A DNA stretch of 32,000 nucleotides from Candidatus Syntropharchaeum caldarium. GTDB lineage: Archaea > Halobacteriota > Syntropharchaeia > Syntropharchaeales > Syntropharchaeaceae. This document shows positions 3,767-21,987 of the stretch, in pieces. Position 1 is the first letter of the stretch; each line of letters starts with the position of its first letter. Under the pieces are notes generated by a model. It made no database searches, was not told the DNA's origin, and saw only the letters and a list, made by a program, of their open reading frames with translations. The position numbers and the translations under genes are program-made. The stretch is from the NCBI GenBank assembly GCA_001766815.1, contig LYOS01000003.1, forward strand, positions 1-32,000. The letters run 5' to 3'.

Positions 3767-4345
3767 TTACCATAATTTACCCCTGTATTGCCCGATCGCA
3801 GGACATCCAAGGCACTGGCTGTTTTTATAAATTGCGCAGTCCTTACACTCGATATCGATTCCGCAGGGCTGCGTATCAACCAGTTTTATATCCATCTTCA
3901 CAGGTATGATCAACTTTTTTGCCGTGCTGATCACGATATTGAGTTCAACGCTCTCAACCTCTTCAATTGGGCGTATGTGACCGTTTACGATCGCCTCAAG
4001 GGTTGGAATGTCCTCACCTGCAAAGAATAGACAGACATTATTCTTTCCCGAGAGAATGAAACCGTTCAGGAAATATGGACAGTCTCTAAACATGTTGATT
4101 ATACGACTTGTATCTGCGGTTGCGATGTCCACCTTTGCGATATAAAGACCAAGCTTCGATGGATCTATCCCGCACCGTTTCTCTATCGCTCCCATATTTT
4201 TAAGCTTCTTGAGCCGCATCGCAACTGAGGGCTGTGTGAGTTTGATCCTCTCCGCGATCTCCTTCTGTGAGATATCGGGATTCTCGATGAGAAGTGTAAT
4301 AATCTCCCGATCCTTTGAGTCGATCTTGAATTCTTTCAGCGGCAT
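3767..4345 (-). CDS. Lrp/AsnC-family transcriptional regulator with a C-terminal Cys-rich extension
   Basis: 192 aa. N-terminal HTH (DREIITLLIENPDISQKEIAERIKLTQPSVAMRLKKLKNMGAI) and a RAM-like middle part. The tail is C161-x5-C-x2-C-x7-C-x2-C181-P (PCGIDIECKDCAIYKNSQCLGCP). Transcribed divergently from the redox operon. Confidence 0.8.
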   Translation of the reverse strand: MPLKEFKIDSKDREIITLLIENPDISQKEIAERIKLTQPSVAMRLKKLKNMGAIEKRCGIDPSKLGLYIAKVDIATADTSRIINMFRDCPYFLNGFILSGKNNVCLFFAGEDIPTLEAIVNGHIRPIEEVESVELNIVISTAKKLIIPVKMDIKLVDTQPCGIDIECKDCAIYKNSQCLGCPAIGQYRGKLW

Positions 4346-4360
4346 CTATAGACTGATTGT

Positions 4361-4421
4361 TTTAATAGTATATAGGCTTTATTGGAATAAAGTTATAAAT
4401 TATAGTCAAAAGCTTTATATA
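4361..4421. promoter_or_regulatory. Divergent promoter region with two TATA-like boxes
   Basis: 75-nt AT-rich spacer between the lrp-like start (4345, minus) and the operon start. TTTAATAGTATATA lies at 4361-4374 and AAAAGC-TTTATATA at 4405-4421. A short inverted repeat TATAA-A-TTATA sits at about 4394-4404. Assigned by position and composition only. Confidence 0.3.
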
Positions 4422-4687
4422 TGATAAATATGATAGAGTACCAGAGGCATACTATGATAGATGCATGTCCAGGTGCAGTAGACTTCACAGACCCAAAACC
4501 GATGTTTGTCAAATGTGAGTGCGGGCGCGAGGTTGAGATATGGACGGATGAGATAAGCGCTGAATGTGAATGCGGTAGAACCGTAAAGCGCGATATGAAA
4601 TCCGCCTGTTATCTCTGGTGTGAGCATGCTGCTGAATGTATTGGAGAAGAAAACTTGAGGAGAATCAAGGATGAAAAAAGTGAGTGA
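4421..4687 (+). CDS. Small Cys-rich (zinc-ribbon-like) protein, first gene of the redox operon
   Basis: 88-aa ORF with 8 Cys, including two CEC knuckles (KCECGREVEIW...AECECGRTV) and C-x4-WC-x5-C. Overlaps the next gene by 17 nt. The real start may be ATG 4454 (MIDACPG...), because the TATA-like box overlaps 4421 and AGAGG precedes 4454. Confidence 0.6.
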   Translation: MINMIEYQRHTMIDACPGAVDFTDPKPMFVKCECGREVEIWTDEISAECECGRTVKRDMKSACYLWCEHAAECIGEENLRRIKDEKSE

Positions 4688-6518
4688 ACACGATTCTGTT
4701 AATGAAATGCGCGAGATTTTGAGTGCTGATGGAATTACAAATCTCTTTGATCGTTTTGAAAATCAAAACGGGAGGTGTCCTTTCTGTACAGGAGGGATAA
4801 GCTGCCAATTGTGCAGTAACGGACCCTGCAGGATAAAGAAGGGGGCAGACAGGGGTGCATGTGGGATAGATGCTGACGGGATGGCGATGCGAAACTTCCT
4901 TTTGAAGAATATCATGGGAACGGCAACCTATACCTATCATGCGAAAGAGGTCGCAAAGACGCTCAAAGCCACAATAGCGGGGAAGACCGCCTTTAAGATA
5001 ACTGACGAAGCAAAATTGAAAGAACTTGCATCGATGTTTGGGATTGCAGATACTGATCTTGGTGGAGCTTTCCTTGATCTTATAAAGACCGATTCGGATG
5101 AAGTTCTGAAGTCTGTTGAACTTCTGGCACCAGCAAGCCGAATAAAGGTCTGGAAGGAGCTTGGAATACTCCCAGGAGGTCCACAGGAAGAGATGATGGA
5201 TGCGCTCTCAAGCTGTCTTACGAATGTTGATGGGGATTATGTATCACTTGCAAAAAAGGCGATGAGGCTTGGAATATCGACGATATATGGTTCGCAGATC
5301 CCGCTTGAACTGGGGCAGGACATCCTCTTTGGAACCCCTATGCCACACGAGGTTAATACCGATCTTGGGATCATCGATCCTGATTATGTTAACATCGTGC
5401 CGAACGGACATGAACCTTTCATCGGTGCTGCGATCATCGAGACTGCTCACACTGATCTTGTTCAGCAGAAAGCACGAGATGCAGGGGCAAAAGGACTTCG
5501 TGTCATCGGCTCGATCGAGACAGGGCAGGAGCTTATACAGCGTTTCGAGGTTGATGATGTCTTTGTTGGGTTTACAGGTAACTGGATCTCGATTGAGCCT
5601 GCACTTGCAACGGGTGGAATTGATCTCTTTCTGATGGATATGAACTGCTCACCACCTGCAATGGGGGAGTATCAGGATAAATACAACACAACGCTTCTCT
5701 CGGTCTCAAAACTTGTTTCAGTCCCTGGAATGAAGGGGCAGAAAGTATACATGCCCGAAGAGGTTAAGGCACAGGCAGAAGAACTGATCGATATGGCGAT
5801 TGAAAACTTTAAGGCTCGCAAGGGTAAACCAACACATCCTGTTTCAAAGACCCAGAAAGCGATTGCCGGAATCTCGATTGAAGCGTGTCTTTCGGTGCTT
5901 GGAGGTAGCCTTGATCCACTGCTTGATGTGATAAAGAACGGTACGATTAAGGGTGTTGTTGCGGTTGTGAGCTGTACAAGTCTCAAAAACGGTCCACAGG
6001 ACTCACTCACCGTTGCTGTTGCAAAAGAACTCATAAAACGGGACATTCTTGTTGTTGCTGCAGGATGTGGAAACGCAGCACTCCAGGTCGCAGGACTTGA
6101 GACACCTGAGGCAAAGGAGCTTGCAGGAGACGGCCTTAAAGCAGTCTGTGAGAAGCTTGGAATCCCACCAGTTTTGAGTTTTGGTACATGCACGGATACG
6201 GGCAGGATCGCAATGCTTGTAACAGCGGTTGCAGATGCCCTTGGTGTTGATCCATCAGATCTCCCCGTGGCTGTGACAGCTCCTGAGTACATGGAGCAGA
6301 AGGCAACAATAGATGCGGTATTTGCGGTTGCGTTCGGACTTTACACACATGTATCACCGATCCCACCTGTTACAGGAGCGGATCGTCTTGTTAATCTTCT
6401 TACAGAGGATGTTGAGGGACTTACAGGGGGCAAGATCGCTGTAGGCGACGATCCTGTTGAGATCGTTGATGGGATTGAAGCGCATATAAATAAGAAACGA
6501 GCTAAGCTTGGGATATAA
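4671..6518 (+). CDS. cooS: CooS/Hcp-superfamily enzyme: CO-dehydrogenase catalytic-subunit scaffold with a non-canonical active-site ligand set (CooS-V-like)
   Basis: 615 aa. N-terminal B/D-cluster Cys block CPFCTGGISCQLCSNGPCRI...GACG. CooS-like motifs NGHEP (His247), MDMNCSPP (Cys326), VVSCTS (Cys435), AAGCGNAAL (Cys466), FGTCTDTGR (Cys507) and EQKA (Lys544). Where canonical CooS has GICCTGNE, this protein has GSIETGQE (Ile282/Glu283). Confidence 0.85.
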   Translation: MKKVSEHDSVNEMREILSADGITNLFDRFENQNGRCPFCTGGISCQLCSNGPCRIKKGADRGACGIDADGMAMRNFLLKNIMGTATYTYHAKEVAKTLKATIAGKTAFKITDEAKLKELASMFGIADTDLGGAFLDLIKTDSDEVLKSVELLAPASRIKVWKELGILPGGPQEEMMDALSSCLTNVDGDYVSLAKKAMRLGISTIYGSQIPLELGQDILFGTPMPHEVNTDLGIIDPDYVNIVPNGHEPFIGAAIIETAHTDLVQQKARDAGAKGLRVIGSIETGQELIQRFEVDDVFVGFTGNWISIEPALATGGIDLFLMDMNCSPPAMGEYQDKYNTTLLSVSKLVSVPGMKGQKVYMPEEVKAQAEELIDMAIENFKARKGKPTHPVSKTQKAIAGISIEACLSVLGGSLDPLLDVIKNGTIKGVVAVVSCTSLKNGPQDSLTVAVAKELIKRDILVVAAGCGNAALQVAGLETPEAKELAGDGLKAVCEKLGIPPVLSFGTCTDTGRIAMLVTAVADALGVDPSDLPVAVTAPEYMEQKATIDAVFAVAFGLYTHVSPIPPVTGADRLVNLLTEDVEGLTGGKIAVGDDPVEIVDGIEAHINKKRAKLGI

Positions 6519-6538
6519 GAAAAGGAGGTGAGAGGATC

Positions 6539-6700
6539 ATGAAAGAAGTATTTCTATGCAGTGAACATGGATGTTGTCCAAGTGTTGAGATACTCGATGA
6601 GAGTGTGGTAATCGGCGAAGAGACATTCGTTGAACTCAACAGAGATCAGTGGAACGATCTTGTGTCTAAGATCGAGTCAGGCGTTCTTGGAAAGATTTGA
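6539..6700 (+). CDS. Small conserved-looking protein (53 aa), not in the ORF track
   Basis: Strong RBS AAGGAGGTGA at 6522-6531, then ATG 6539 and TGA 6698-6700. Sequence: MKEVFLCSEHGCCPSVEILDESVVIGEETFVELNRDQWNDLVSKIESGVLGKI. The pattern (Cys pair, xVEI, then W..LV..I..G) resembles DUF397-type small domains. Confidence 0.6.
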   Translation: MKEVFLCSEHGCCPSVEILDESVVIGEETFVELNRDQWNDLVSKIESGVLGKI

Positions 6701-6715
6701 GTGGGGGTATACTGG

Positions 6716-7042
6716 ATGGATGTGATCAATGTTCTTGATAGGGAATCTTTCAGCCCAGATTCAAAGAGTGTTGTTCGCCTGATCGATGAAGATTACCTCC
6801 AGCTTAACCTGATATGCCTTGAGGCAGGGCAGGAAGTTCCATATCACAATGCAAACTCGAATGTGAACCTGCTGGTCGTGAGGGGAGAGGGTGAACTGGA
6901 GCTTGCAGGTGAAAAAGCACGACTGGAACATGGAAAGATTTTCCGTGTTCCTTTCAAGACAAGGATGAGGATCGTGAACGATTCAAATGATCGTCTTTCT
7001 TTCCTCGTCTTTAAAACCCCGAATCCAAAAGAAATGAGGTGA
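6716..7042 (+). CDS. Cupin-fold protein
   Basis: ORF 6701-7042. I prefer ATG 6716, which is preceded by GGGGGT (6703-6708). Cupin-like core LEAGQEVPYHNANSNVNLLVVRGEGELELAGE...IFRVPFKTRMRIVN, with a reduced His set. Confidence 0.65.
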   Translation: MDVINVLDRESFSPDSKSVVRLIDEDYLQLNLICLEAGQEVPYHNANSNVNLLVVRGEGELELAGEKARLEHGKIFRVPFKTRMRIVNDSNDRLSFLVFKTPNPKEMR

Positions 7043-7054
7043 GGAAGGTAGAAT

Positions 7055-8407
7055 ATGAGAAAAGGTTCTGTAATTTTTGTGCTGCTGCTATTGATCCTGC
7101 CTTTTATGGGATCTGCGGTAGCATCGGAGTGTACAGACTGCCACGAAAGCGTGACACCGAAGATCGTTGAAGACTTCAGTAGCGGTGTGATGGGCGATAA
7201 GATCGACTGTTCGAACTGCCATGGATCGGCACACAATTCCGCCGATAATGTGGAGAATGTGAAATTCCCAACCCATGAGACCTGTGGTGCCTGTCACGAT
7301 GTACAGGATACCCAGTATATGGAGGGTAAACACAGTATCGCATGGGCCGCTCTCTTTGCACCTCCCACAACCGGTGATCAGCCTAAAGAGTTAATGGAGG
7401 GTCAGAAGGGATGTGGAGGTTGCCACAAGATCGGAGCAAAGGATGAAACAGGCTGGGATGATTATGAGTACGGTGTGGTGGGCTGTGACAACTGCCATAC
7501 AAGACATAGCTTCTCAGTAGAGGAGGCGAGAAAGCCTGAAGCATGTCTGCCATGCCATCAGGGATTTGATCATGCACAGTGGGAGATGTACTCAACATCG
7601 AAGCACGGTGTGATCTACCAGACAGAGGGTGATAGATGGGACTGGAGTGTACCGCTCAGTGAGGCAGGCGACGAGTACACCGCTCCAACGTGTCAGCTCT
7701 GCCATATGAAAGATGGAGATCACGCGGTGATGACAAGCTGGGGCTTCCTCGGTGTCAGGGTCGAAGAGCCAGATGAGGAATGGATGGATGATCGTGTATC
7801 TGTACTCAAGGCGTATGGTGTACTCGATGCAGACGGAAATCCGACAGATAGGTTCGATCTCGTGGGTGCTGCAAAGCTTGCGCGGCTTACGATGGATGAA
7901 TGGAATGCCGAAAGAGAGGAGATGATTGCAACCTGCAGTGAGTGTCACTCAGAGACATTTGCAAGAAACTCACTTGAAGAGGGTGATCACCTTCTGAGAG
8001 AATCTGACAGGATCTATGCAGACTCAATCGAGACGGTTGCAGCCCTTTACAGGGATGGAATTCTTCCAGAGCCAGAGTACATCGAGGAACTTCCGTCTTA
8101 CCCATATCCGGATGTCCTGAGGTTCTATGATCAGGCAACACCAATCGAGGAGGACCTCTGGCTCATGTGGATGGAGTACAGGATGCGGACATTCCAGGGC
8201 GCTTTCCATGCAAATCCCGACTACGTTCAGTGGTATGGATGGGGACCACTCAAAGAGACCGCTGTGAGAATTCAGGCAGAGGATGAGCGATTGCGGGCTG
8301 AGGCAGCAACTCCAGAGAGTTCGGTAGAAGAGAGTCCTGGGTTTGGTGCGATCATCGGGATTGCAGCACTACTTGGACTGGTTCTCTACCTTAGAAGAAG
8401 GGGATAA
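7055..8407 (+). CDS. hao: Hydroxylamine-oxidoreductase (HAO)-family octahaem cytochrome c, secreted, with a PGF-CTERM anchor
   Basis: 450 aa with a Sec signal peptide (...FMGSAVA|SE). Eight CxxCH motifs at C26, C52, C77, C120, C144, C164, C213 and C294. The block [42 protein letters not shown], plus APTCQLCHM and [11 protein letters not shown], closely matches Nitrosomonas HAO as I recall it. C-terminus: [25 protein letters not shown]. Confidence 0.85.
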
Positions 8408-8419
8408 GTTAATTACCCC

Positions 8420-8431
8420 TTTTCTTTTTTT
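8420..8431 (+). terminator. Oligo-T archaeal terminator after the cytochrome gene
   Basis: TTTTCTTTTTTT lies 13 nt after the stop codon, followed by AAAAAATAT and the GGAGGT RBS of the next gene. Confidence 0.45.
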
Positions 8432-8453
8432 AAAAAATATGGAGGTTTTAAGA

Positions 8454-8873
8454 ATGGAACCTGTAAACGAGAATAAGATTGGTATTGCAAAGGGAACTGA
8501 GCTTGAAAATGTTGTGAAGGCAAACTTTCAGGGTGAGACGACGGAAGTCGGGCTTTACCTTGCGATGGCACGATGTGCACAGCGAGAAGGTTACCCCGAG
8601 ATCGCAGAGGTCTTGAAGACGCTTGCCTTTGAAGAAGCGGCGCATGGAGCACGATTTGCTGAGCTCAACGCCGAGATCTCAACGAGCACAGAGGAGAATC
8701 TGAAATATATGCTTGAAGGCGAACGAATGGCGAATAAGGAGAAGTTAGATGCTGCGATGAAGGCGAAAGAACTCGGGCTTGATGAACTTCATGATCTCTT
8801 CGATGAATCCTCCAGAGATGAAGCACGGCATGCAAAAGCACTTGAAGGTCTCCTGAAGCGGTATTTTGGTTGA
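8454..8873 (+). CDS. Rubrerythrin-like diiron (ferritin-fold) protein without a rubredoxin domain
   Basis: 139 aa from ATG 8454, with RBS GGAGGT at 8441-8446. The 8343 start in the ORF track overlaps the cytochrome tail and is rejected. Diiron motifs E..GE...Y, EEAAH and DEARH. Confidence 0.8.
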
Positions 8874-8882
8874 TAGATTAAC

Positions 8883-9212
8883 ATGAAGATCGCAGTGGTT
8901 AGATGCGAGATCGTGTCTGAGGTATGCCCTGGTGTTGGCTGCTTCAAGGCATTCAATGATCGGAGAGAGTATTTCAAAGATTATGGAGAGGATGCCGAGA
9001 TCGTGGGGTTCTTTACCTGCGGCGGGTGCTCTGGCAGGCGGGTTATGAGACTTGTTGGAAGCCTTAAGAAGTACGGGGTCGATGTAATCCATCTTGGGTC
9101 CTGTATGACGATGGGTGAGCGAGAGGGATATCTCCCATGCCCGCATCTGGATACGATTAGATCAGGTATCGAGTCAAAAGGTGTCAAGGTAGTATCAGGG
9201 ACGCATCATTAG
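8883..9212 (+). CDS. CGGC-domain protein
   Basis: 109 aa: MKIAVVRCEIVSEVCPGVGCF...FFTCGGCSGRR...HLGSCM. This is the literal CGGC motif in its usual context. Confidence 0.75.
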   Translation: MKIAVVRCEIVSEVCPGVGCFKAFNDRREYFKDYGEDAEIVGFFTCGGCSGRRVMRLVGSLKKYGVDVIHLGSCMTMGEREGYLPCPHLDTIRSGIESKGVKVVSGTHH

Positions 9213-9229: not shown

Positions 9230-9910
9230 ATGGTAAAACGACTCATCATAAAGATAGACGAGGAGAAATGTGATGGCTGTGGGGAATGTGTCATCGCATG
9301 CGAGGAGGGAGCACTTGAGATCATCGATGGAAAGGCTAAGGTTGTCAAAGAGAGTCTCTGCGATGGTCTTGGTGCGTGTATCGGTGAATGCCCACAGGGA
9401 GCGCTTACAATCGAAGAACGTGAAGCAGAGGCATTTTTGGGGGCAGAAATACCTGTATGCCCCTCCACAAAGTCGATGGTCTGGGAAAAACCTTCTGAAT
9501 CGAAAGAAACAGTACGAACAAGCTCTGAGCTTCGCCAGTGGCCAGTTCTACTCAATCTTGTATCTCCACAGGCTCCCTATTTCAAAAACGCAGATTTACT
9601 CCTTGTTGCAGACTGCGTTCCTGTTGCATACCCGAACTTCCACGCCGACTTTCTTAAAAATCACGCTATCGCGGTTGGTTGCCCAAAGTTCGATGATGTC
9701 AACGTCTATCTGAATAAGGTTACAGAGATCCTGAAGCAATCAGATCTTAAAAGTCTCACCGTGCTCTACATGGAGGTTCCATGCTGTTTTGGACTTGTAC
9801 ATCTTGCACAGGAGGCGGTCAAGCGATCTGGAATGGATGTGCCGTTCAAGGTCATTAAGATTGGAATAAAGGGCGAGGTAATTGAAGAAAAAAGAGGTGA
9901 AATAAAATGA
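9230..9910 (+). CDS. 2x[4Fe-4S] ferredoxin domain fused to an uncharacterised Cys-containing C-terminal domain
   Basis: 226 aa. CDGCGECVIAC and CDGLGACIGECP are ferredoxin motifs. The C-terminal part carries WPVLLNLV...LLLVADCVPVAY...VGCPKFDD...MEVPCCFGL. Confidence 0.75.
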   Translation: MVKRLIIKIDEEKCDGCGECVIACEEGALEIIDGKAKVVKESLCDGLGACIGECPQGALTIEEREAEAFLGAEIPVCPSTKSMVWEKPSESKETVRTSSELRQWPVLLNLVSPQAPYFKNADLLLVADCVPVAYPNFHADFLKNHAIAVGCPKFDDVNVYLNKVTEILKQSDLKSLTVLYMEVPCCFGLVHLAQEAVKRSGMDVPFKVIKIGIKGEVIEEKRGEIK

Positions 9911-10236
9911 GCGATGAGGCCATAAAATCAAGAGCAATCAAACTCTCAGAATTTATCGATTACTCCCCAGGCTCGATCGTGAGTAAAGCAATCGTTGATA
10001 AGAAGGCAGGTACGATAACCCTCTTTGCTTTTGACCGTGGTCAGGGCTTGAGTGAACATTCAGCACCGTTTGACGCTGTTGTGCAGGTTATAGAGGGTGA
10101 GGCAGAGGTCATAATTGGTGGAGAGGTGCATAGGGTCAGAGCGGGAGAGATCATCATCATGCCAGCAGATGTCCCACATGCAGTGAAGGCGCCTGAGCAA
10201 TTCAAGATGCTTCTTGTGATGATCAGATCGCAATGA
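9907..10236 (+). CDS. Cupin-fold protein
   Basis: 109 aa with an ATGA start/stop overlap with the upstream gene. Core: GQGLSEHSAPFDAVVQVIEGEAEVIIGGEVHRVRAGEIIIMPADVPHAV. Confidence 0.7.
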   Translation: MSDEAIKSRAIKLSEFIDYSPGSIVSKAIVDKKAGTITLFAFDRGQGLSEHSAPFDAVVQVIEGEAEVIIGGEVHRVRAGEIIIMPADVPHAVKAPEQFKMLLVMIRSQ

Positions 10237-10245
10237 GGAGAAAAA

Positions 10246-11025
10246 ATGTTCTCAAGTGATCTGAAATTAATCGTAATTTACAGCGATCTCTTCGGAGATA
10301 AGTTCATCAGAAACCTCGTGAATACGACAACCTTCTGTATATCCTGCGCTGAGGCGTGCGATCACTGCAGAGAAGGTAAGTTTAACTTTTCGACAAATAT
10401 CGTGGGCATCTTCAAATTACCGGATCCTGCAACGCTTCCTGAATTTATCGAGGAAGGAATTGAGGAGTACATGCCACAGAATCTCCCAGAAGCAGATCTT
10501 GCGATAGTATCAGGGGTTCACAATGATATTCTGCTTGAGCTTCCATATCTTCTTAAAAGTGCAGGGATAAAAGCGATGATCGTCCCAATCGAGGCATCAG
10601 CACGTCTTGGAATTGCACAGGTTCAGGAAATATGTGAGAAACTTGAAATCGAGTTTGCCGCACCAAAACCGTTCTGTGAGCTTGATCTCGATCCTGATAA
10701 GCCTGTGATCTCACAGTTCATCGAAGAGTTCGGTATCGGGCGACCGAAGCTAAACGTGGAGCTTGATGGAGAGAGGATTGCCCGTATGGATGTTATAAGG
10801 AGTGCCCCCTGTGGCTGCACATGGTACATCGCAAAGCAGCTTCGAAATGTTAAGATTTCAGATAGAAGAGAGTTATGGGATCGGATCAGTGAGGCACACC
10901 ACTCCTACCCCTGTACCGCAAGCATGGAGCACGATTCTGTACTTGGAGATACGATACTTCATAAGGCGGGGTATATTGCGAGGGAGGCGGTTGAGGAGGG
11001 GATTGAGGGGAAAACAATTTTATAG
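10246..11025 (+). CDS. Cys-containing conserved archaeal protein, probably DUF166 family
   Basis: 259 aa. Features I associate with DUF166: N-terminal C..C..C..C, KPFCEL, RSAPCGCTWYIAKQL and HHSYPCTASMEHD...GDTILHKAGYI. Family assignment is from memory only. Confidence 0.55.
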   Translation: MFSSDLKLIVIYSDLFGDKFIRNLVNTTTFCISCAEACDHCREGKFNFSTNIVGIFKLPDPATLPEFIEEGIEEYMPQNLPEADLAIVSGVHNDILLELPYLLKSAGIKAMIVPIEASARLGIAQVQEICEKLEIEFAAPKPFCELDLDPDKPVISQFIEEFGIGRPKLNVELDGERIARMDVIRSAPCGCTWYIAKQLRNVKISDRRELWDRISEAHHSYPCTASMEHDSVLGDTILHKAGYIAREAVEEGIEGKTIL

Positions 11026-11061
11026 CATTTGCAAATAATGGTTTTAGCAGGAAAGTTTCTG

Positions 11062-11071
11062 TTTTTTTTTT
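11062..11071 (+). terminator. T10 tract, a likely terminator of the second redox operon
   Basis: Ten consecutive T, 37 nt downstream of the stop at 11025. Confidence 0.45.
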
Positions 11072-11086
11072 GTTATTGGTAACCGC

Positions 11087-11100
11087 TATATATATTTAAA
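11087..11100 (+). promoter_or_regulatory. TATA-like box positioned for a leaderless transcript starting near 11119
   Basis: TATATATATTTAAA lies about 20-30 nt upstream of ATG 11119. That spacing fits an archaeal TATA-to-TSS distance. Confidence 0.35.
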
Positions 11101-11118
11101 CTTCAACCCTCTGGTTTG

Positions 11119-11247
11119 ATGAAAGCGTTGGGCATTTCAGTGATGGTGCTGATGGTGATGGCGGTAACGGTAGTGGCTGCAGGTGCGAGCGATCTGAAAG
11201 CGGTTGGAAGCCCAGTACGTGATATTGTAACGGACGCAAATAAGTAA
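11119..11247 (+). CDS. 42-aa hydrophobic micro-protein (signal-peptide-like or single TM), not in the ORF track
   Basis: MKALGISVMVLMVMAVTVVAAGASDLKAVGSPVRDIVTDANK. Shows strong GNN/RNY codon periodicity (gtg atg gtg ctg atg gtg atg gcg gta acg gta gtg gct gca ggt gcg). A TATA-like box sits upstream and the next gene starts 3 nt after its stop. Confidence 0.4.
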   Translation: MKALGISVMVLMVMAVTVVAAGASDLKAVGSPVRDIVTDANK

Positions 11248-11249
11248 TT

Positions 11250-11861
11250 ATGATAATCATGCGAAATAGAAACAACCGAACCCAAAAAATCATACGATCT
11301 CTTGCTGGTTTGTTGTTAATGGTACTACTATTCTTTTTAGTGCTCACAACCGTGGTGGGAAAGGATATTTACCAGTACAGATTGTTTGAGGCCATTGGGC
11401 AGATGTATGGAGTTTTTATCCTTTTTGGATGGCTTTTTATTGGTTTTTTGGCTGCGATGCTTATCTTTATCCGTGTATTTAAATGGGATAATAAACTGAA
11501 CGCTGGTTATGTGATCGGGGGTTTATTTGGCCTGTTTGTTTATTATCTCTGGGCGTTGTTCTTGATTCTATTTCTCAGATCTTCTACTTCGTGGTTCAAT
11601 AGCTTTCAGTGGCTTACAGGAGGCTCGATCATATTGTTTGTAGTGGGAGGTATCTATCTCTTTACCTCTTGTGGCAGACAGAAAGTGAAGGAGCGTATTC
11701 GATCGGACGTGATAATCTTTCTGATCACATTCTTCGTATGGCTTGGTTTTGTAGGGATACTGGATATTGCGAAGATGCCTCTCCCTGTTCAAGTTAACAT
11801 TGGCATTGGTTACCTGCTGGCTCTTATGATTCTCTGGAGTGTGAAAAGCAATGAAGTTTAG
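11250..11861 (+). CDS. Polytopic membrane protein (about 6 TM), function unknown
   Basis: 203 aa with repeated hydrophobic segments (LLLMVLLFFLVLTTVV, VFILFGWLFIGFLAAMLIFI, LFGLFVYYLWALFLILFL, SIILFVVGGIYLF, IIFLITFFVWLGFVGIL, IGIGYLLALMILW). Alternative start at ATG 11259. Confidence 0.65.
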   Translation: MIIMRNRNNRTQKIIRSLAGLLLMVLLFFLVLTTVVGKDIYQYRLFEAIGQMYGVFILFGWLFIGFLAAMLIFIRVFKWDNKLNAGYVIGGLFGLFVYYLWALFLILFLRSSTSWFNSFQWLTGGSIILFVVGGIYLFTSCGRQKVKERIRSDVIIFLITFFVWLGFVGILDIAKMPLPVQVNIGIGYLLALMILWSVKSNEV

Positions 11862-11970
11862 TATCGCTATTTACACCACAGGTATTTTTTATTTTATCAC
11901 TTTTTTAATTTTACTTCTTATTGCATATTGGTTGTGGAAAAAGAGAAAAATAAAAGGAGAAAAGATGTGA
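11851..11970 (+). CDS. Possible 39-aa single-TM micro-protein
   Basis: MKFSIAIYTTGIFYFITFLILLLIAYWLWKKRKIKGEKM, overlapping the upstream gene by 11 nt. The AT-rich context makes chance hydrophobic ORFs likely. Confidence 0.2.
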   Translation: MKFSIAIYTTGIFYFITFLILLLIAYWLWKKRKIKGEKM

Positions 11971-19397: not shown

Positions 19398-19667
19398 CTA
19401 CTTACTCCTTCTCGATCTTCCAAGTATGATGTGTGCGAGCGTTCCAAAATCCCCACCAAGATTATCGGTCATACCAATCTCAGGTAGAGGATCAATCTGA
19501 TTTCCTTTTGGTGCCTTACCCTTCATCTGTTCAACAACACCATAGATCTGGGAGATACCTGTTGCTCCAAGCGGATGTCCTTTTCCAAGCAGACCACCTG
19601 ACATGTTGGTTGGGATCTTTCCACCGATCTCGAAATCACCCTCCTTACATGCTTTGTATCCCTCAAA
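19398..19667 (-). pseudogene. 3'-terminal remnant of a thiolase (acetyl-CoA C-acetyltransferase) gene
   Basis: An 89-codon open frame bounded upstream by an in-frame TGA (19668-19670): FEGYKACKEGDFEIGGKIPTNMSGGLLGKGHPLGATGISQIYGVVEQMKGKA...GMTDNLGGDFGTLAHIIL. It contains the thiolase C-terminal signature (NxSGG...GHPxGATG). The N-terminal ~300 aa are absent in any frame, and ccmE starts 36 nt further on the opposite strand. Confidence 0.75.
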
Positions 19668-19702
19668 TCATTCAAAATCTATTTAAACACGCTCACCTTA
19701 AT

Positions 19703-20095
19703 ATGGATTCAATGAATAAACAAACCCGCCTGGCGATTGGAGCGATTATAATTGTTCTCTGCCTTATTGGACTTGGACTCACCCTCAAAGGTTCTGTTGT
19801 ACCATATATCACTGTCAGTGAGCTTAAATCAGGCGACTACGTGGGAGAACACATCCAGATCAACGGAACTGTGGTCACGGGATCGGTTGAGTGGCACCCA
19901 AAAGATGTTCTGCTGACATTCCAGCTAACAGATGGCCATGAGGTGGTGAATGTCGAGTACAGGGGCAGTATCCCGAACAACTTTGAGGAAGGCAAGATGG
20001 TTGTTGTTGGTGGAGTTTATGAGAGGGATCTCTTCGAGGCAGACGAGATACTTGTAAAATGCCCATCAAAGTACACCGAGGAGATCGAAGAATGA
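19703..20095 (+). CDS. ccmE: Cytochrome c maturation haem chaperone CcmE, archaeal CxxxY variant
   Basis: 130 aa: N-terminal TM anchor, OB-fold body, and C-terminal LVKC120PSKY124 in place of the bacterial HxxxY. Alternative start at ATG 19712, which may be leaderless from ATTTAAA at 19681-19687. The 19433 start in the ORF track is rejected. Confidence 0.85.
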   Translation: MDSMNKQTRLAIGAIIIVLCLIGLGLTLKGSVVPYITVSELKSGDYVGEHIQINGTVVTGSVEWHPKDVLLTFQLTDGHEVVNVEYRGSIPNNFEEGKMVVVGGVYERDLFEADEILVKCPSKYTEEIEE

Positions 20096-21987
20096 ACGAT
20101 CTAATCTTTCTTGGGGCGGCACTTCTTGCAGCAATGGCAGCGGTTCTCCTCTATGTGGTCGGGGCTGAACTCAAACGGAATGATCTGATCGAGTGGGGAA
20201 AAGTCTCAACGCACTTAACTTTTATATTTATAACGATCGCATCGCTCCGGCTGTTTTATCTGCTCATCACTCATGACTTCCAGAATATGTATGTTGCAAC
20301 GTACACAAGTCGGGATCTCCCACTTTTCTATGTCGTATCAGCCTTCTGGGCAGGTCAGCAGGGTTCATTCCTTCTATGGGTCTGGCTCATTGCGATCTTT
20401 GCATCGGCTCTGCTTTTTATTAAGAAGGATGATGAACGCTTCATGGCATACACCCTGGCGATGCTTGCTGCGATCATGGTCGGATTTCTCTACATCCTTG
20501 TTACAGTATCAAATCCATTTGAACGACTTGATTTTATACCAGCAGACGGAAATGGGCTGAATCCACTCCTGCAGGATCCAGGCATGGTGCTACACCCGCC
20601 CGTGCTCTTCATCGGGTATGCAGGGTTGGCTGTTCCCTTCGCGTTTGCCGTTGCTGGTGTTATCATGAAACGGGACTGGATTAAATCTGCAAGAAGCTGG
20701 CTCATCCTGGCATGGGTAGCTCTCTCAATGGGTAATATCATTGGTGCATGGTGGGCATACCATGTGCTTGGGTGGGGTGGATACTGGGCATGGGACCCGG
20801 TCGAGAACTCGTCACTTCTACCCTGGCTAACAGCATCAGCACTGCTCCACACCATGATGATCGAGGAGAAAACGGGAAAAATGCGTCTCTCAAACTTTCT
20901 CCTTATCTCAATCACCTTCATTCTTGTCCTGTACGGGACATTCCTGACACGAAGCGGCATCCTCGAATCGGTCCACGCATTTGCAAACTCCGGGCTCGGT
21001 GGCATACTGATGGGATTTTTGCTCATCATACTGACAGCATCTGTGAGGCTCATGATAAGAAGAAGGGATTACCTCAAATCAGATCCAGTTGGGTTTGATC
21101 TATCGCGATCAGGGCTCATACTGATCACTTCCATCCTGCTTGTTATATCTACAGGGACGGTTCTTGCAGGAAGTTTCTATCCATTGATTCTTGAGTTTAC
21201 AGGTGGGGTTCAGCAGATGGTTCAGGCTGAATATTATAACACGATGAATGTCCCGATCGCAGTCATGATTCTCCTGCTTCTTGGAGTTTGTCCCCTGATT
21301 GGCTGGCGGCGGTACACTATGATGGAGTTGAAGAAAAATGTCATGGTTTCAGCGATATCTGCGGTAACAGTTCTTGTAATTGCACTTATTGGAGGCATTA
21401 GAAATCTTATTGCACTTTCTGGCATCATAGCGTGCACATTTGCTCTTACAACCCATATATTTGAGTTTTACACTACAAAAAAATCTGGAAATAATATTCT
21501 TGATGCTATAGGCAAAAACCATCGCCGTTTCGGGGGATACATCGTTCATATCTCGCTAATTGTAATGGTAATCGGCGTCTGTGGCTCTTCGATCTATGAT
21601 GAGCGAGATATCTTCACACTTCAGATAGGTTCAGAGCATACAATCGGCGATTACACGATGAGATATGGTGGTACAGAGATGATCCCTTCGAAATCTGGTG
21701 TCTACTATGTTGCAATCGTTGATCTGTACAGGGATGGCAGGGTTATTGGACGAGCCATGCCAGATGTGTACTACTCATATCGATTTGATCAGACGTATCA
21801 GCATGTCTATATCAAAAGCACACTATTGGAGGATTTCTATCTTGTATATCAGGGGTCTGAGCAAGGATACGCTCTTTTTGAAGTGCGGATTCTTCCCCTT
21901 GTAAGTTTCATCTGGTGGGGTGGCATTCTACTTCTCCTGGGTGGGATTGTTGCCCTTATGCCTGATAAGAGGAGAAATGAAAAATGA
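20092..21987 (+). CDS. ccmF: Cytochrome c maturation haem lyase / haem-handling protein CcmF
   Basis: 631 aa from ATG 20092, with an ATGA overlap with the ccmE stop. Polytopic, with the WWD motif WGGYWAWDPVENSSLLPWL. Confidence 0.9.
   Translation: MNDLIFLGAALLAAMAAVLLYVVGAELKRNDLIEWGKVSTHLTFIFITIASLRLFYLLITHDFQNMYVATYTSRDLPLFYVVSAFWAGQQGSFLLWVWLIAIFASALLFIKKDDERFMAYTLAMLAAIMVGFLYILVTVSNPFERLDFIPADGNGLNPLLQDPGMVLHPPVLFIGYAGLAVPFAFAVAGVIMKRDWIKSARSWLILAWVALSMGNIIGAWWAYHVLGWGGYWAWDPVENSSLLPWLTASALLHTMMIEEKTGKMRLSNFLLISITFILVLYGTFLTRSGILESVHAFANSGLGGILMGFLLIILTASVRLMIRRRDYLKSDPVGFDLSRSGLILITSILLVISTGTVLAGSFYPLILEFTGGVQQMVQAEYYNTMNVPIAVMILLLLGVCPLIGWRRYTMMELKKNVMVSAISAVTVLVIALIGGIRNLIALSGIIACTFALTTHIFEFYTTKKSGNNILDAIGKNHRRFGGYIVHISLIVMVIGVCGSSIYDERDIFTLQIGSEHTIGDYTMRYGGTEMIPSKSGVYYVAIVDLYRDGRVIGRAMPDVYYSYRFDQTYQHVYIKSTLLEDFYLVYQGSEQGYALFEVRILPLVSFIWWGGILLLLGGIVALMPDKRRNEK

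Follow-up and report, generated by a model that had tools for sequence, protein, structure and literature searches.

CooS-V from Carboxydothermus hydrogenoformans belongs to a class of proteins that resemble carbon monoxide dehydrogenases of the Ni,Fe kind (CODHs) and carry a Glu at the position of Cys295, a ligand of the Ni,Fe C-cluster. The class is already known: it was defined by sequence and predicted to be similar to the hybrid cluster protein (Hcp) in 2019 (Inoue et al., PMC6344411), and its structure was solved in 2022 (Jeoung et al., PMC9311411; PDB 7B7Q, 7B7T, 7B95, 7B97, and 7B9A). We examined a gene from a 32,000-nucleotide stretch of DNA of the archaeon Candidatus Syntropharchaeum caldarium (contig LYOS01000003.1, positions 1 to 32,000; hereafter the window) whose product closely resembles CooS-V. 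The gene lies at 4671-6518 on the plus strand and is everywhere annotated as a nickel CO dehydrogenase. Our analysis adds some value to what is known of the class by correcting the assignment of one active-site residue (Tyr87), by documenting systematic mis-annotation, and by describing a conserved module of AsnC-like, CooS-V-type, and HAO-like (hydroxylamine oxidoreductase-like) genes that alkane-oxidizing and methanotrophic archaea have in common.

The biochemistry of CooS-V has been described in detail by Jeoung et al. (PMC9311411). The protein holds a [4Fe-3S]/[4Fe-2S-S*-2O] hybrid cluster ligated by His259, Glu295, Cys338, Cys449, Cys480, Cys521, and Glu556. It is Ni-free and neither oxidizes CO nor reduces CO2, and the C295E and C295A variants of CODH-II were likewise Ni-deficient and inactive in CO oxidation. 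An extra Cys (Cys41) gives CooS-V a [2Fe-2S] D-cluster like that of Desulfovibrio vulgaris CODH. Its hybrid cluster is redox-active, cycles reversibly with substrate, and has potentials about 300 mV below those of HCP. The substrate-oxidized form is [4Fe-2S-S*-2O-2H2O], in which a Cys persulfide shuts the substrate channel. Reduction of hydroxylamine to ammonia is the sole turnover demonstrated for the class. It proceeded with a kcat of 0.13 s-1 and a kcat/KM of 20 M-1 s-1, below the activity of Rhodospirillum rubrum CODH, and reduction of NO was not detected. The gene context in Carboxydothermus was reported to be uninformative.

The window protein carries the CooS-V ligand set

The gene has an intact reading frame of 615 codons, and its product matches the Pfam Prismane/CODH family (PF03063, E 2.7e-144). 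The protein scored 796.5 bits against TIGR01702, the NCBIfam equivalog model for Ni-CODH ("anaerobic CO dehydrogenase catalytic subunit"), for which the cut-off is 478. This model evidently does not separate CooS-V-type proteins from true CODHs, and automatic annotation therefore cannot tell the two classes apart. Residue-level comparison was more informative. An initial annotation had proposed, from a hand alignment, that the CC pair of the CODH motif GICCTGNE is replaced in this protein and that the replacement is characteristic of CooS-V. HMMER alignments to solved enzymes agreed with the hand alignment, which was not shifted. They placed GSIETGQE of the window protein opposite GMCCTGNE of the Thermococcus AM4 CODH (6t7j) and GICCTGNE of CODH-IV (6elq), with no gaps nearby, and opposite GSIESGQE of CooS-V. 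Ile282-Glu283 (ATC GAG, 5514-5519) occupies the positions of Cys294-Cys295, and Glu283 (codon 5517-5519), at the Cys295 ligand position of the Ni,Fe C-cluster, is the equivalent of the ligand Glu295 in CooS-V.

The remaining hybrid-cluster ligands of CooS-V each have an identical counterpart in the window protein. His247 (5409-5411) corresponds to CooS-V His259 and CODH-II His261. Asn325-Cys326 (5643-5648) corresponds to Asn337, which hydrogen-bonds to a cluster water, and the ligand Cys338. Cys435 (5973-5975) and Cys466 (6066-6068) align with Cys449 and Cys480, and Cys507 (6189-6191) aligns with Cys521, the ligand that forms the persulfide and so controls access to the channel. Glu542-Gln543-Lys544 (6294-6302) contains the equivalents of the ligand Glu556 and of Lys558. 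The Glu two residues ahead of the Lys was remarked on by Inoue et al. (PMC6344411), and its counterpart in HCP is Glu494.

The N-terminal clusters follow the same pattern. The D-cluster motif C36-P-F-C39 (4776-4787) corresponds to CooS-V Cys38/Cys41, and Ser44 (4800-4802) replaces the canonical second D-cluster Cys. The arrangement C36-x2-C39-x5-C45, with Ser at 44, fits the type III D-cluster motif Cys-x2-Cys-x5-Cys (PMC6344411). By analogy to CooS-V, C36 and C39 would bind a subunit-bridging [2Fe-2S] cluster; the link between a CX2C motif and this cluster type, which the initial annotation had drawn from Desulfovibrio CODH, is stated for CooS-V itself in PMC9311411. The B-cluster [4Fe-4S] cysteines C45, C48, C53, and C64 (4803-4862) are invariant among homologues and match the CooS-V motif C47-x2-C50-x4-C55-x12-C68, with a loop two residues shorter. 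All of the residues named in the initial annotation (C36-P-F-C39, S44, C45, C48, C53, C64, H90, H247, I282-E283, C326, C435, C466, C507, and K544) were present at the positions it gave.

One functional assignment had to be revised. The initial annotation took His90 for the acid/base His of CODH. There is a His at position 90, but it is the equivalent of CODH-II His96, and the acid/base position (CODH-II His93) is occupied by Tyr87 (Tyr87 and His90 span 4929-4940). CODH-II numbering was derived from chain offsets in the PDB alignments (C64 = Cys70), column statistics, and the papers of Inoue et al. and Jeoung et al.; the protein P0134, considered as a stand-in for a direct CODH-II alignment, was dropped because it is closest to the Thermococcus CODH. 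Canonical CODHs have His at query column 87 in 32 of 34 representatives and at column 90 in 30 of 34, whereas Glu-type proteins have Tyr87 and His90 in 12 of 12. Table 2 of Inoue et al. (PMC6344411) describes structural group D-1 in matching terms: "type III D-cluster; H-E-C-C-C-C; Tyr, Lys". In the window protein, the C-cluster set of true CODHs (His261, Cys295, Cys333, Cys446, Cys476, Cys526) is therefore broken at Cys295 by Glu283, and the acid-base pair His93/Lys563 is reduced to Lys544. The change at the acid/base position strengthens the conclusion, already reached in the initial annotation, that the protein is not a CODH.

Taken together, the window protein has the full CooS-V signature of C39, S44, Y87, I282-E283, N325, and E542-Q543, at positions where canonical CODHs have G, C, H, CC, Q, and S/T/N followed by E. 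N325 and E542-Q543 are additional discriminating positions, which the initial annotation did not list. Glu283 is kept in 121 of 121 close homologues, and C36 and C39 are both kept in all 119 that cover the N-terminus. The cluster ligands and second-sphere residues are invariant across the 121 homologues, which come from Archaea and several bacterial phyla. A search for the patterns GSIETGQE or MEQKATID located more than 580 stretches in species-representative genomes that encode a relative. With this degree of conservation and this many relatives, the Cys-to-Glu change is neither chance nor a sequencing error. Hosts include Methanoperedens, anaerobic methanotrophic archaea (ANME) of groups 2 and 3, Hydrothermarchaeota, Thermoplasmata, Nitrospirota, Armatimonadota, and many Clostridia.

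Sequence, tree, and predicted fold place the protein with CooS-V

We compared the window protein with solved structures. The best relative was CooS-V (7b7q and four sister entries; E 2.4e-234, 782 bits, full length), with 58.9% identity over the full length, and the top Ni-CODH in the same comparison scored 413 bits. An AlphaFold2 model built from 33 homologues had a pLDDT of 87 and a pTM of 0.90. In a Foldseek search of the PDB with this model, the CooS-V entries 7b9a and 7b7q ranked first and second (TM 0.98, root-mean-square deviation 1.4-1.5 Å), and Ni-CODHs followed at TM 0.94-0.95 with 32-37% identity.

We then searched 1.84 billion representative proteins and aligned the full-length matches. 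Glu-type proteins in this alignment share C39, S or R at 44, Glu as the second residue of the former CC pair, N325, and E542. The next groups, 40-48% identical, retain Cys at position 283 and have N325 and E542 in common with the Glu type. Canonical CODHs have G39, C44, CC, Q325, and S, T, or N at 542. The same distribution of traits is described in PMC9311411. In a neighbor-joining tree of 616 trimmed columns, drawn without bootstrap, the window protein fell inside a monophyletic Glu-bearing clade together with CooS-V, and the sister groups of this clade keep the Cys. The clade also holds a protein from Ca. Syntrophoarchaeum butanivorans (82.9% identity) and cooS_2 of Methanoperedens BLZ2 (70.6%).

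The protein is less similar to the other enzymes that might be considered. It shares with the Ni,Fe-CODHs (C. hydrogenoformans CODH-II, Thermococcus AM4, D. vulgaris) the three-domain fold, the B-cluster, five of six C-cluster ligand positions, and the catalytic Lys, and with D. vulgaris CODH also the CxxC [2Fe-2S] type of D-cluster. It is only 33-38% identical to these enzymes, however, and differs from them in having Glu for Cys295, Tyr for His93, Asn for Gln beside the Cys333 equivalent, and an extra Glu two residues ahead of the Lys; CooC and CooF are also not encoded near the window gene. Hcp, a hydroxylamine/NO reductase, likewise matches PF03063, and its Fe/S/O hybrid cluster is also ligated by His, two Glu, and Cys, but its similarity to the window protein is weak and partial. 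The Hcp model (TIGR01703 / NF003658) gave 44.4 bits against a cut-off of 360.8, through a partial C-terminal match alone, and E-values to Hcp structures in the PDB were 1e-5 to 1e-7. The CooS-V type also differs from Hcp in being a CODH-like dimer with a bridging D-cluster, in which the hybrid cluster evolved independently.

The closest correspondence is with CooS-V itself. The D-, B-, and hybrid-cluster ligands are identical, second-sphere N325, K544, and Y87 are shared, and neither gene has a CooC/CooF context. The differences are that the window host is an archaeon, that the window protein is 14 residues shorter overall, and that its gene belongs to a conserved block that also contains genes for an AsnC-like regulator and an HAO-like cytochrome and a small Cys-rich open reading frame (ORF), a context which has not been described for the Carboxydothermus gene. 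The ligand set, fold, and clade membership of the window protein are established by these comparisons, and they bear out the class assignment made in the initial annotation. We conclude with high confidence that the protein is of the CooS-V type (Inoue structural group D-1) and is not a CODH.

Gene neighborhoods resemble those of detoxifying enzymes

The initial annotation had also pointed to the absence of CooC and CooF partners. Of the window's larger ORFs, 20 were scanned with Pfam, and none was recognized as CooC, CooF, Ech hydrogenase, or ACS. We also screened 85 non-redundant related loci by motif, taking every ORF up to 3.5 kb from the gene, and neither a CooC-like P-loop protein nor a CooF-like polyferredoxin turned up in any of them. 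This observation stands with one qualification: a gene for a ferredoxin-domain protein (9230-9910), 2.7 kb downstream of the CooS-V-type gene, is a candidate for the electron donor.

We asked which gene families do recur, using unbiased clustering of the ORFs near the gene in those loci followed by Pfam assignment. An HAO-family octahaem cytochrome was the most frequent neighbor, with 9 loci when the window is counted. It was followed by a small cupin and a 2x[4Fe-4S] ferredoxin-domain protein with 8 loci each, those of the latter being from Archaea, Armatimonadota, WS1, and Nitrospirota. A flavodiiron protein and a ferredoxin-thioredoxin-reductase-beta-like protein each occurred in 5 loci. 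Rubrerythrin was found in 4, besides the window and S. butanivorans, a hemerythrin/DUF438/PAS protein also in 4, and a rubredoxin-reductase-like flavoprotein and CRP/FNR regulators in 3 each. This set is the repertoire usual around O2- or NO-detoxifying enzymes and not around C1 metabolism. The flavodiiron protein, rubrerythrin, CRP/FNR regulator, and ferredoxin-like partner give CooS-V-family neighborhoods a stress-type character like that of Hcp. A universal operon partner was ruled out, because the gene is solitary on long Methanoperedens contigs.

An HAO-like cytochrome is encoded next to the CooS-V-type gene in some archaea

The gene at 7055-8407 (+) codes for an HAO-family octahaem cytochrome c (PF13447) of 450 amino acids. 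Its eight CxxCH motifs are accompanied by a signal peptide and by PGF-CTERM, an archaeal surface anchor. Among solved structures it is most similar to the Kuenenia HAO-like protein 6h5l (E 3e-36) and to Nitrosomonas europaea HAO (E 1e-35). Tyr467 of Nitrosomonas HAO, the P460 cross-linking residue, lies opposite a Gln in the HMMER alignment, which is ambiguous here, and an invariant Tyr is found two residues upstream ("DYxxW").

Pairing of the two genes was seen in a subset of loci only. Of 19 non-redundant Methanosarcinales/Syntrophoarchaeum-type loci whose flanks were long enough, 8 have an HAO-like gene directly downstream in the same orientation; among 60 other (non-Methanosarcinales) loci there were none. 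The paired loci other than the window are L005-L008, L015-L017, and L022 in our numbering. At these loci the cytochromes are about 30% identical to that of the window, and the CooS proteins about 70%. The block of AsnC-like, CooS-V-type, and HAO-like genes spans Syntrophoarchaeum to Methanoperedens. In five loci from ANME-2a, ANME-3, and Methanosarcinaceae (L019, L023, L024, L025, and L028), we saw rubrerythrin-like, flavodiiron, and ferredoxin-thioredoxin-reductase-beta-like genes upstream. No HAO-like gene was seen in these five, most of whose contigs end within about 600 nt downstream.

Organization of the window locus

On the plus strand, the gene order is Cys-rich ORF, CooS-V type, cupin, HAO-like, rubrerythrin, CGGC, ferredoxin-domain, cupin, and DUF166, with an AsnC-type regulator gene divergent from them. 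The segment 3768-11051 aligns collinearly to LYOR01000005.1, a contig of Ca. Syntrophoarchaeum butanivorans BOX1, with 80-88% of nucleotides identical.

The regulator gene (3767-4345, -) codes for an AsnC/Lrp-type protein (Pfam) with a Cys-rich C-terminal tail (PCGIDIECKDC...CLGC). In S. butanivorans (77% identity) and in the Methanoperedens genomes BLZ2 and HGW-1 (48-49%), a regulator with this tail is again encoded upstream of the CooS-V-type gene. The protein might sense a metal or an Fe-S cluster. Conservation is unusually high in the 75-bp intergenic region between the two divergent transcription units (4346-4420). A 91-nt aligned stretch that includes it (4340-4430) is identical to S. 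butanivorans at 87 of 91 positions, compared with about 80% in the flanking genes, and a palindrome, AAGTTATAAATT, lies inside it at 4390-4401. Judged by this conservation, 4346-4420 is likely a promoter/operator.

Between the regulator and the CooS-V-type gene is a small Cys-rich ORF of 88 amino acids (4421-4687, +) with a zinc-ribbon-like CxC...CxC pattern and no Pfam or NCBIfam family. It overlaps the start of the CooS-V-type gene by 17 nt, and its product is 88% identical in S. butanivorans. We rejected this ORF as a family-wide partner, since it was found in Syntrophoarchaeum only, plus one weak bacterial match. In ANME-2/3 loci, the ferredoxin-thioredoxin-reductase-beta-like small protein occupies the same upstream position.

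A cupin gene (6701-7042, +; Pfam) follows the CooS-V-type gene in the window and is absent from this position in S. butanivorans. Relative to S. butanivorans, where the CooS-V-type and HAO-like genes are 76 nt apart, it is inserted between them (6519-7029). Downstream of the cytochrome gene is a gene for a rubrerythrin-like protein (8439-8873, +; Pfam). The mechanically called ORF (8343-8873) begins at a TTG overlapping the end of the HAO-like gene, and comparison with S. butanivorans indicates that the true start is probably the ATG at 8439. A CGGC-domain protein (8883-9212, +; Pfam) is encoded next.

The candidate electron donor (9230-9910, +; Pfam) is a 2x[4Fe-4S] ferredoxin-domain protein with a Cys-containing C-terminal domain. 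We found no solved or curated relative of its C-terminal ~150 residues, a part that carries the conserved motifs ADCVP, CPKxDD, and MEVPCC. Homologues are encoded within 3.5 kb of CooS-V-type genes at 7 other loci in 4 or more phyla, from Methanoperedens, Thermoplasmata, Armatimonadota, WS1, and Nitrospirota, whereas S. butanivorans lacks the gene at its collinear locus. Identification of this protein as CooF was rejected, as it has just two [4Fe-4S] motifs and no Fer4_11/CooF-type match. A second cupin (9907-10236, +; Pfam) is a recurrent CooS-V-type neighbor, found at 7 other loci, and collinearity with S. butanivorans ends with the gene for a DUF166 (DfsP-like) protein (10246-11025, +; Pfam).

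Archaeal genes (Ftr, TFB, RNA polymerase subunits, CcmE/CcmF) are found in the remainder of the window. The cytochrome c maturation genes CcmE and CcmF at 19433-21987 (+) are consistent with production of multihaem cytochromes.

The Methanoperedens BLZ2 orthologue

A published archaeal orthologue is cooS_2 of Ca. Methanoperedens BLZ2 / carboxydivorans (PADDDONK_01842; 10001-11869 of our locus L017, from NZ_NTMG01000017.1). A 2026 study of CO metabolism (Nat Commun, PMC13079737) treats cooS_1 and cooS_2 of this organism as monofunctional Ni-CODHs. In our alignment cooS_2 is of the Glu type, while the neighboring cooS_1 (4446-6374, -, of our locus L017) keeps the Cys and a canonical D-cluster. 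The locus reads NarG-like, CooS, DUF2114, DUF1894, ferredoxin-domain, AsnC-like, CooS-V type, HAO-like, CBS, and HPP, and agrees gene for gene with PADDDONK_01837-01843 in the supplementary tables of PMC13079737, where PADDDONK_01841 is labelled "asnC-like". The likeness to the window thus extends from the Glu-type signature to the order AsnC-like, CooS-V type, eight-haem HAO-like, with a homologous ferredoxin-domain gene nearby. The BLZ2 module differs in lying within a non-canonical nitrate-reductase cluster and in having a second copy on a mobile element; nitrate-reductase genes are absent from the window.

Transcript levels of cooS_2 were 602 transcripts per million (TPM) under CH4/nitrate, 3613 under CO/nitrate, and 614 under CO/CO2 (PMC13079737). 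Because induction was seen only with CO and nitrate together, expression tracks the nitrate-reductase cluster and not CO. These data are the main evidence that could be read as support for a role in CO metabolism, and they are ambiguous.

A model for the function of the window protein, and its alternatives

We consider it probable that the window protein is a CooS-V-type hybrid-cluster reductase. In this model, the CODH scaffold would be retained and the Ni,Fe C-cluster replaced by an all-iron Fe/S/O hybrid cluster. Two subunits would be bridged by a [2Fe-2S] cluster on C36 and C39 of each chain. Each chain would also contain a [4Fe-4S] B-cluster (C45, C48, C53, C64) and a hybrid cluster on H247, E283, C326, C435, C466, C507, and E542, with N325 and K544 in the second sphere. 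Low-potential electrons would enter at the D-cluster and pass through the B-cluster to the hybrid cluster; their source would be a ferredoxin, possibly the co-encoded protein at 9230-9910. In the reduced state, the cluster is expected to be a [4Fe-3S] unit whose iron sites, like the substrate channel, are open. Oxidation by substrate would then convert it to an oxo-bridged, persulfide-capped form, and the channel would shut. The enzyme's substrate may be a small N-O or O-O compound, which it would reduce in the cytoplasm within a stress or N-oxide-handling island under the AsnC-like regulator. From CooS-V we infer how the cluster reacts, that Ni is absent, and that CO is not turned over. A role in nitrosative or oxidative stress or in handling of N-oxides is suggested by gene context, namely by the HAO-like cytochrome, rubrerythrin, and cupins in the window and by flavodiiron protein, hemerythrin, rubredoxin reductase, and CRP/FNR regulators in other lineages. 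We judge the chance that the substrate is a nitrogen oxide species to be about even.

Gene pairing allows a more specific proposal. The block of AsnC-like regulator, CooS-V type, and PGF-CTERM HAO-like cytochrome could form a two-compartment system devoted to handling reactive nitrogen (hydroxylamine/NO), in which the cytochrome would act outside the membrane and the CooS-V-type protein would be the cytoplasmic low-potential reductase. We offer this proposal tentatively.

Several points weigh against the reductase model or limit it. We know of no N-oxide respiration in Syntrophoarchaeum-type archaea. The metal content and activity assigned to archaeal members rest on homology to CooS-V. Since the HAO-like protein is predicted to lie outside the cytoplasm and the CooS-V-type protein lacks a signal peptide, the two should be unable to form one complex, and a link between them would be functional or regulatory. 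The initial annotation was correct that CooS-V has an Fe-S-O hybrid cluster, does not oxidize CO, and reduces hydroxylamine, all of which PMC9311411 confirms. Turnover of NH2OH by CooS-V is very slow, however, and NO reduction was not detected; the authors of that study consider the physiological reaction open.

The other contrary points concern CO. A genuine Ni,Fe-CODH that oxidizes CO or reduces CO2 in vivo, with Glu283 in place of Cys295 and Ni supplied by a CooC encoded elsewhere, would account for the TIGR01702 score far over the cut-off and for retention of five C-cluster ligands and Lys544. It would also fit the high expression of BLZ2 cooS_2 and its approximately six-fold increase on CO plus nitrate, as well as the Methanosarcina acetivorans genetics cited by Inoue et al. 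(PMC6344411) as a hint that D-1 proteins are involved in CO oxidation. We nevertheless regard this explanation as very unlikely. CooS-V, 59% identical and with the same ligand set, is Ni-free and inactive toward CO, and CODH-II variants with Glu or Ala at Cys295 are Ni-deficient and inactive. The window protein also has Tyr87 at the His93 position and an additional Glu ligand, E542, that is typical of hybrid clusters; the scans of 20 larger window ORFs and of ORFs up to 3.5 kb away at the 85 related loci returned no CooC- or CooF-like gene; and CO without nitrate did not raise cooS_2 transcripts. A catalytically dead CODH relic, retained as a structural or regulatory protein, is more improbable still. 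The slow turnover measured for the class would suit a relic, but invariance of the ligands and second-sphere residues in 121 homologues from Archaea and several bacterial phyla would not, nor would the more than 580 genomic stretches with a relative, the reversible cycling of the CooS-V cluster with substrate, or the strong transcription of the BLZ2 orthologue.

A third explanation accepts the hybrid cluster but ties its role to CO or to general redox stress instead of N-oxides. The protein might then serve as a valve for low-potential electrons, or it might reduce peroxide or O2 and be induced when the ferredoxin pool becomes over-reduced by CO. The increase of the BLZ2 orthologue under CO plus nitrate agrees with this idea, and the adjoining ferredoxin-domain gene PADDDONK_01840 rose strongly under CO/CO2, from 174 to 2326 TPM. 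Rubrerythrin and flavodiiron neighbors suit defense against O2 and H2O2 as well as against NO. Against it, hydroxylamine reduction is the one activity demonstrated in the class, and the HAO-family gene, together with the NarG-like and HPP-family neighbors in BLZ2, indicates nitrogen oxides specifically. We consider a redox-stress role unlikely, though less so than either a CODH or a relic, and favor the CooS-V-type reductase model.

Implications for archaeal CO metabolism and the CooS-V class

With the window protein assigned to the CooS-V type, it would be false to infer carboxydotrophy from its gene for a Syntrophoarchaeum-like alkane oxidizer. Counts of "cooS" genes, now used to infer CO metabolism in ANME and alkane-oxidizing archaea, would include proteins unable to oxidize CO, and mis-annotation reaches the recent literature, in which the Methanoperedens orthologue has been counted as a Ni-CODH (PMC13079737). 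The pairing with an HAO-family cytochrome and the stress-type neighbors found across phyla offer a concrete starting point for testing what the CooS-V class as a whole does. If true, the two-compartment system would supply the physiological role that CooS-V is missing.

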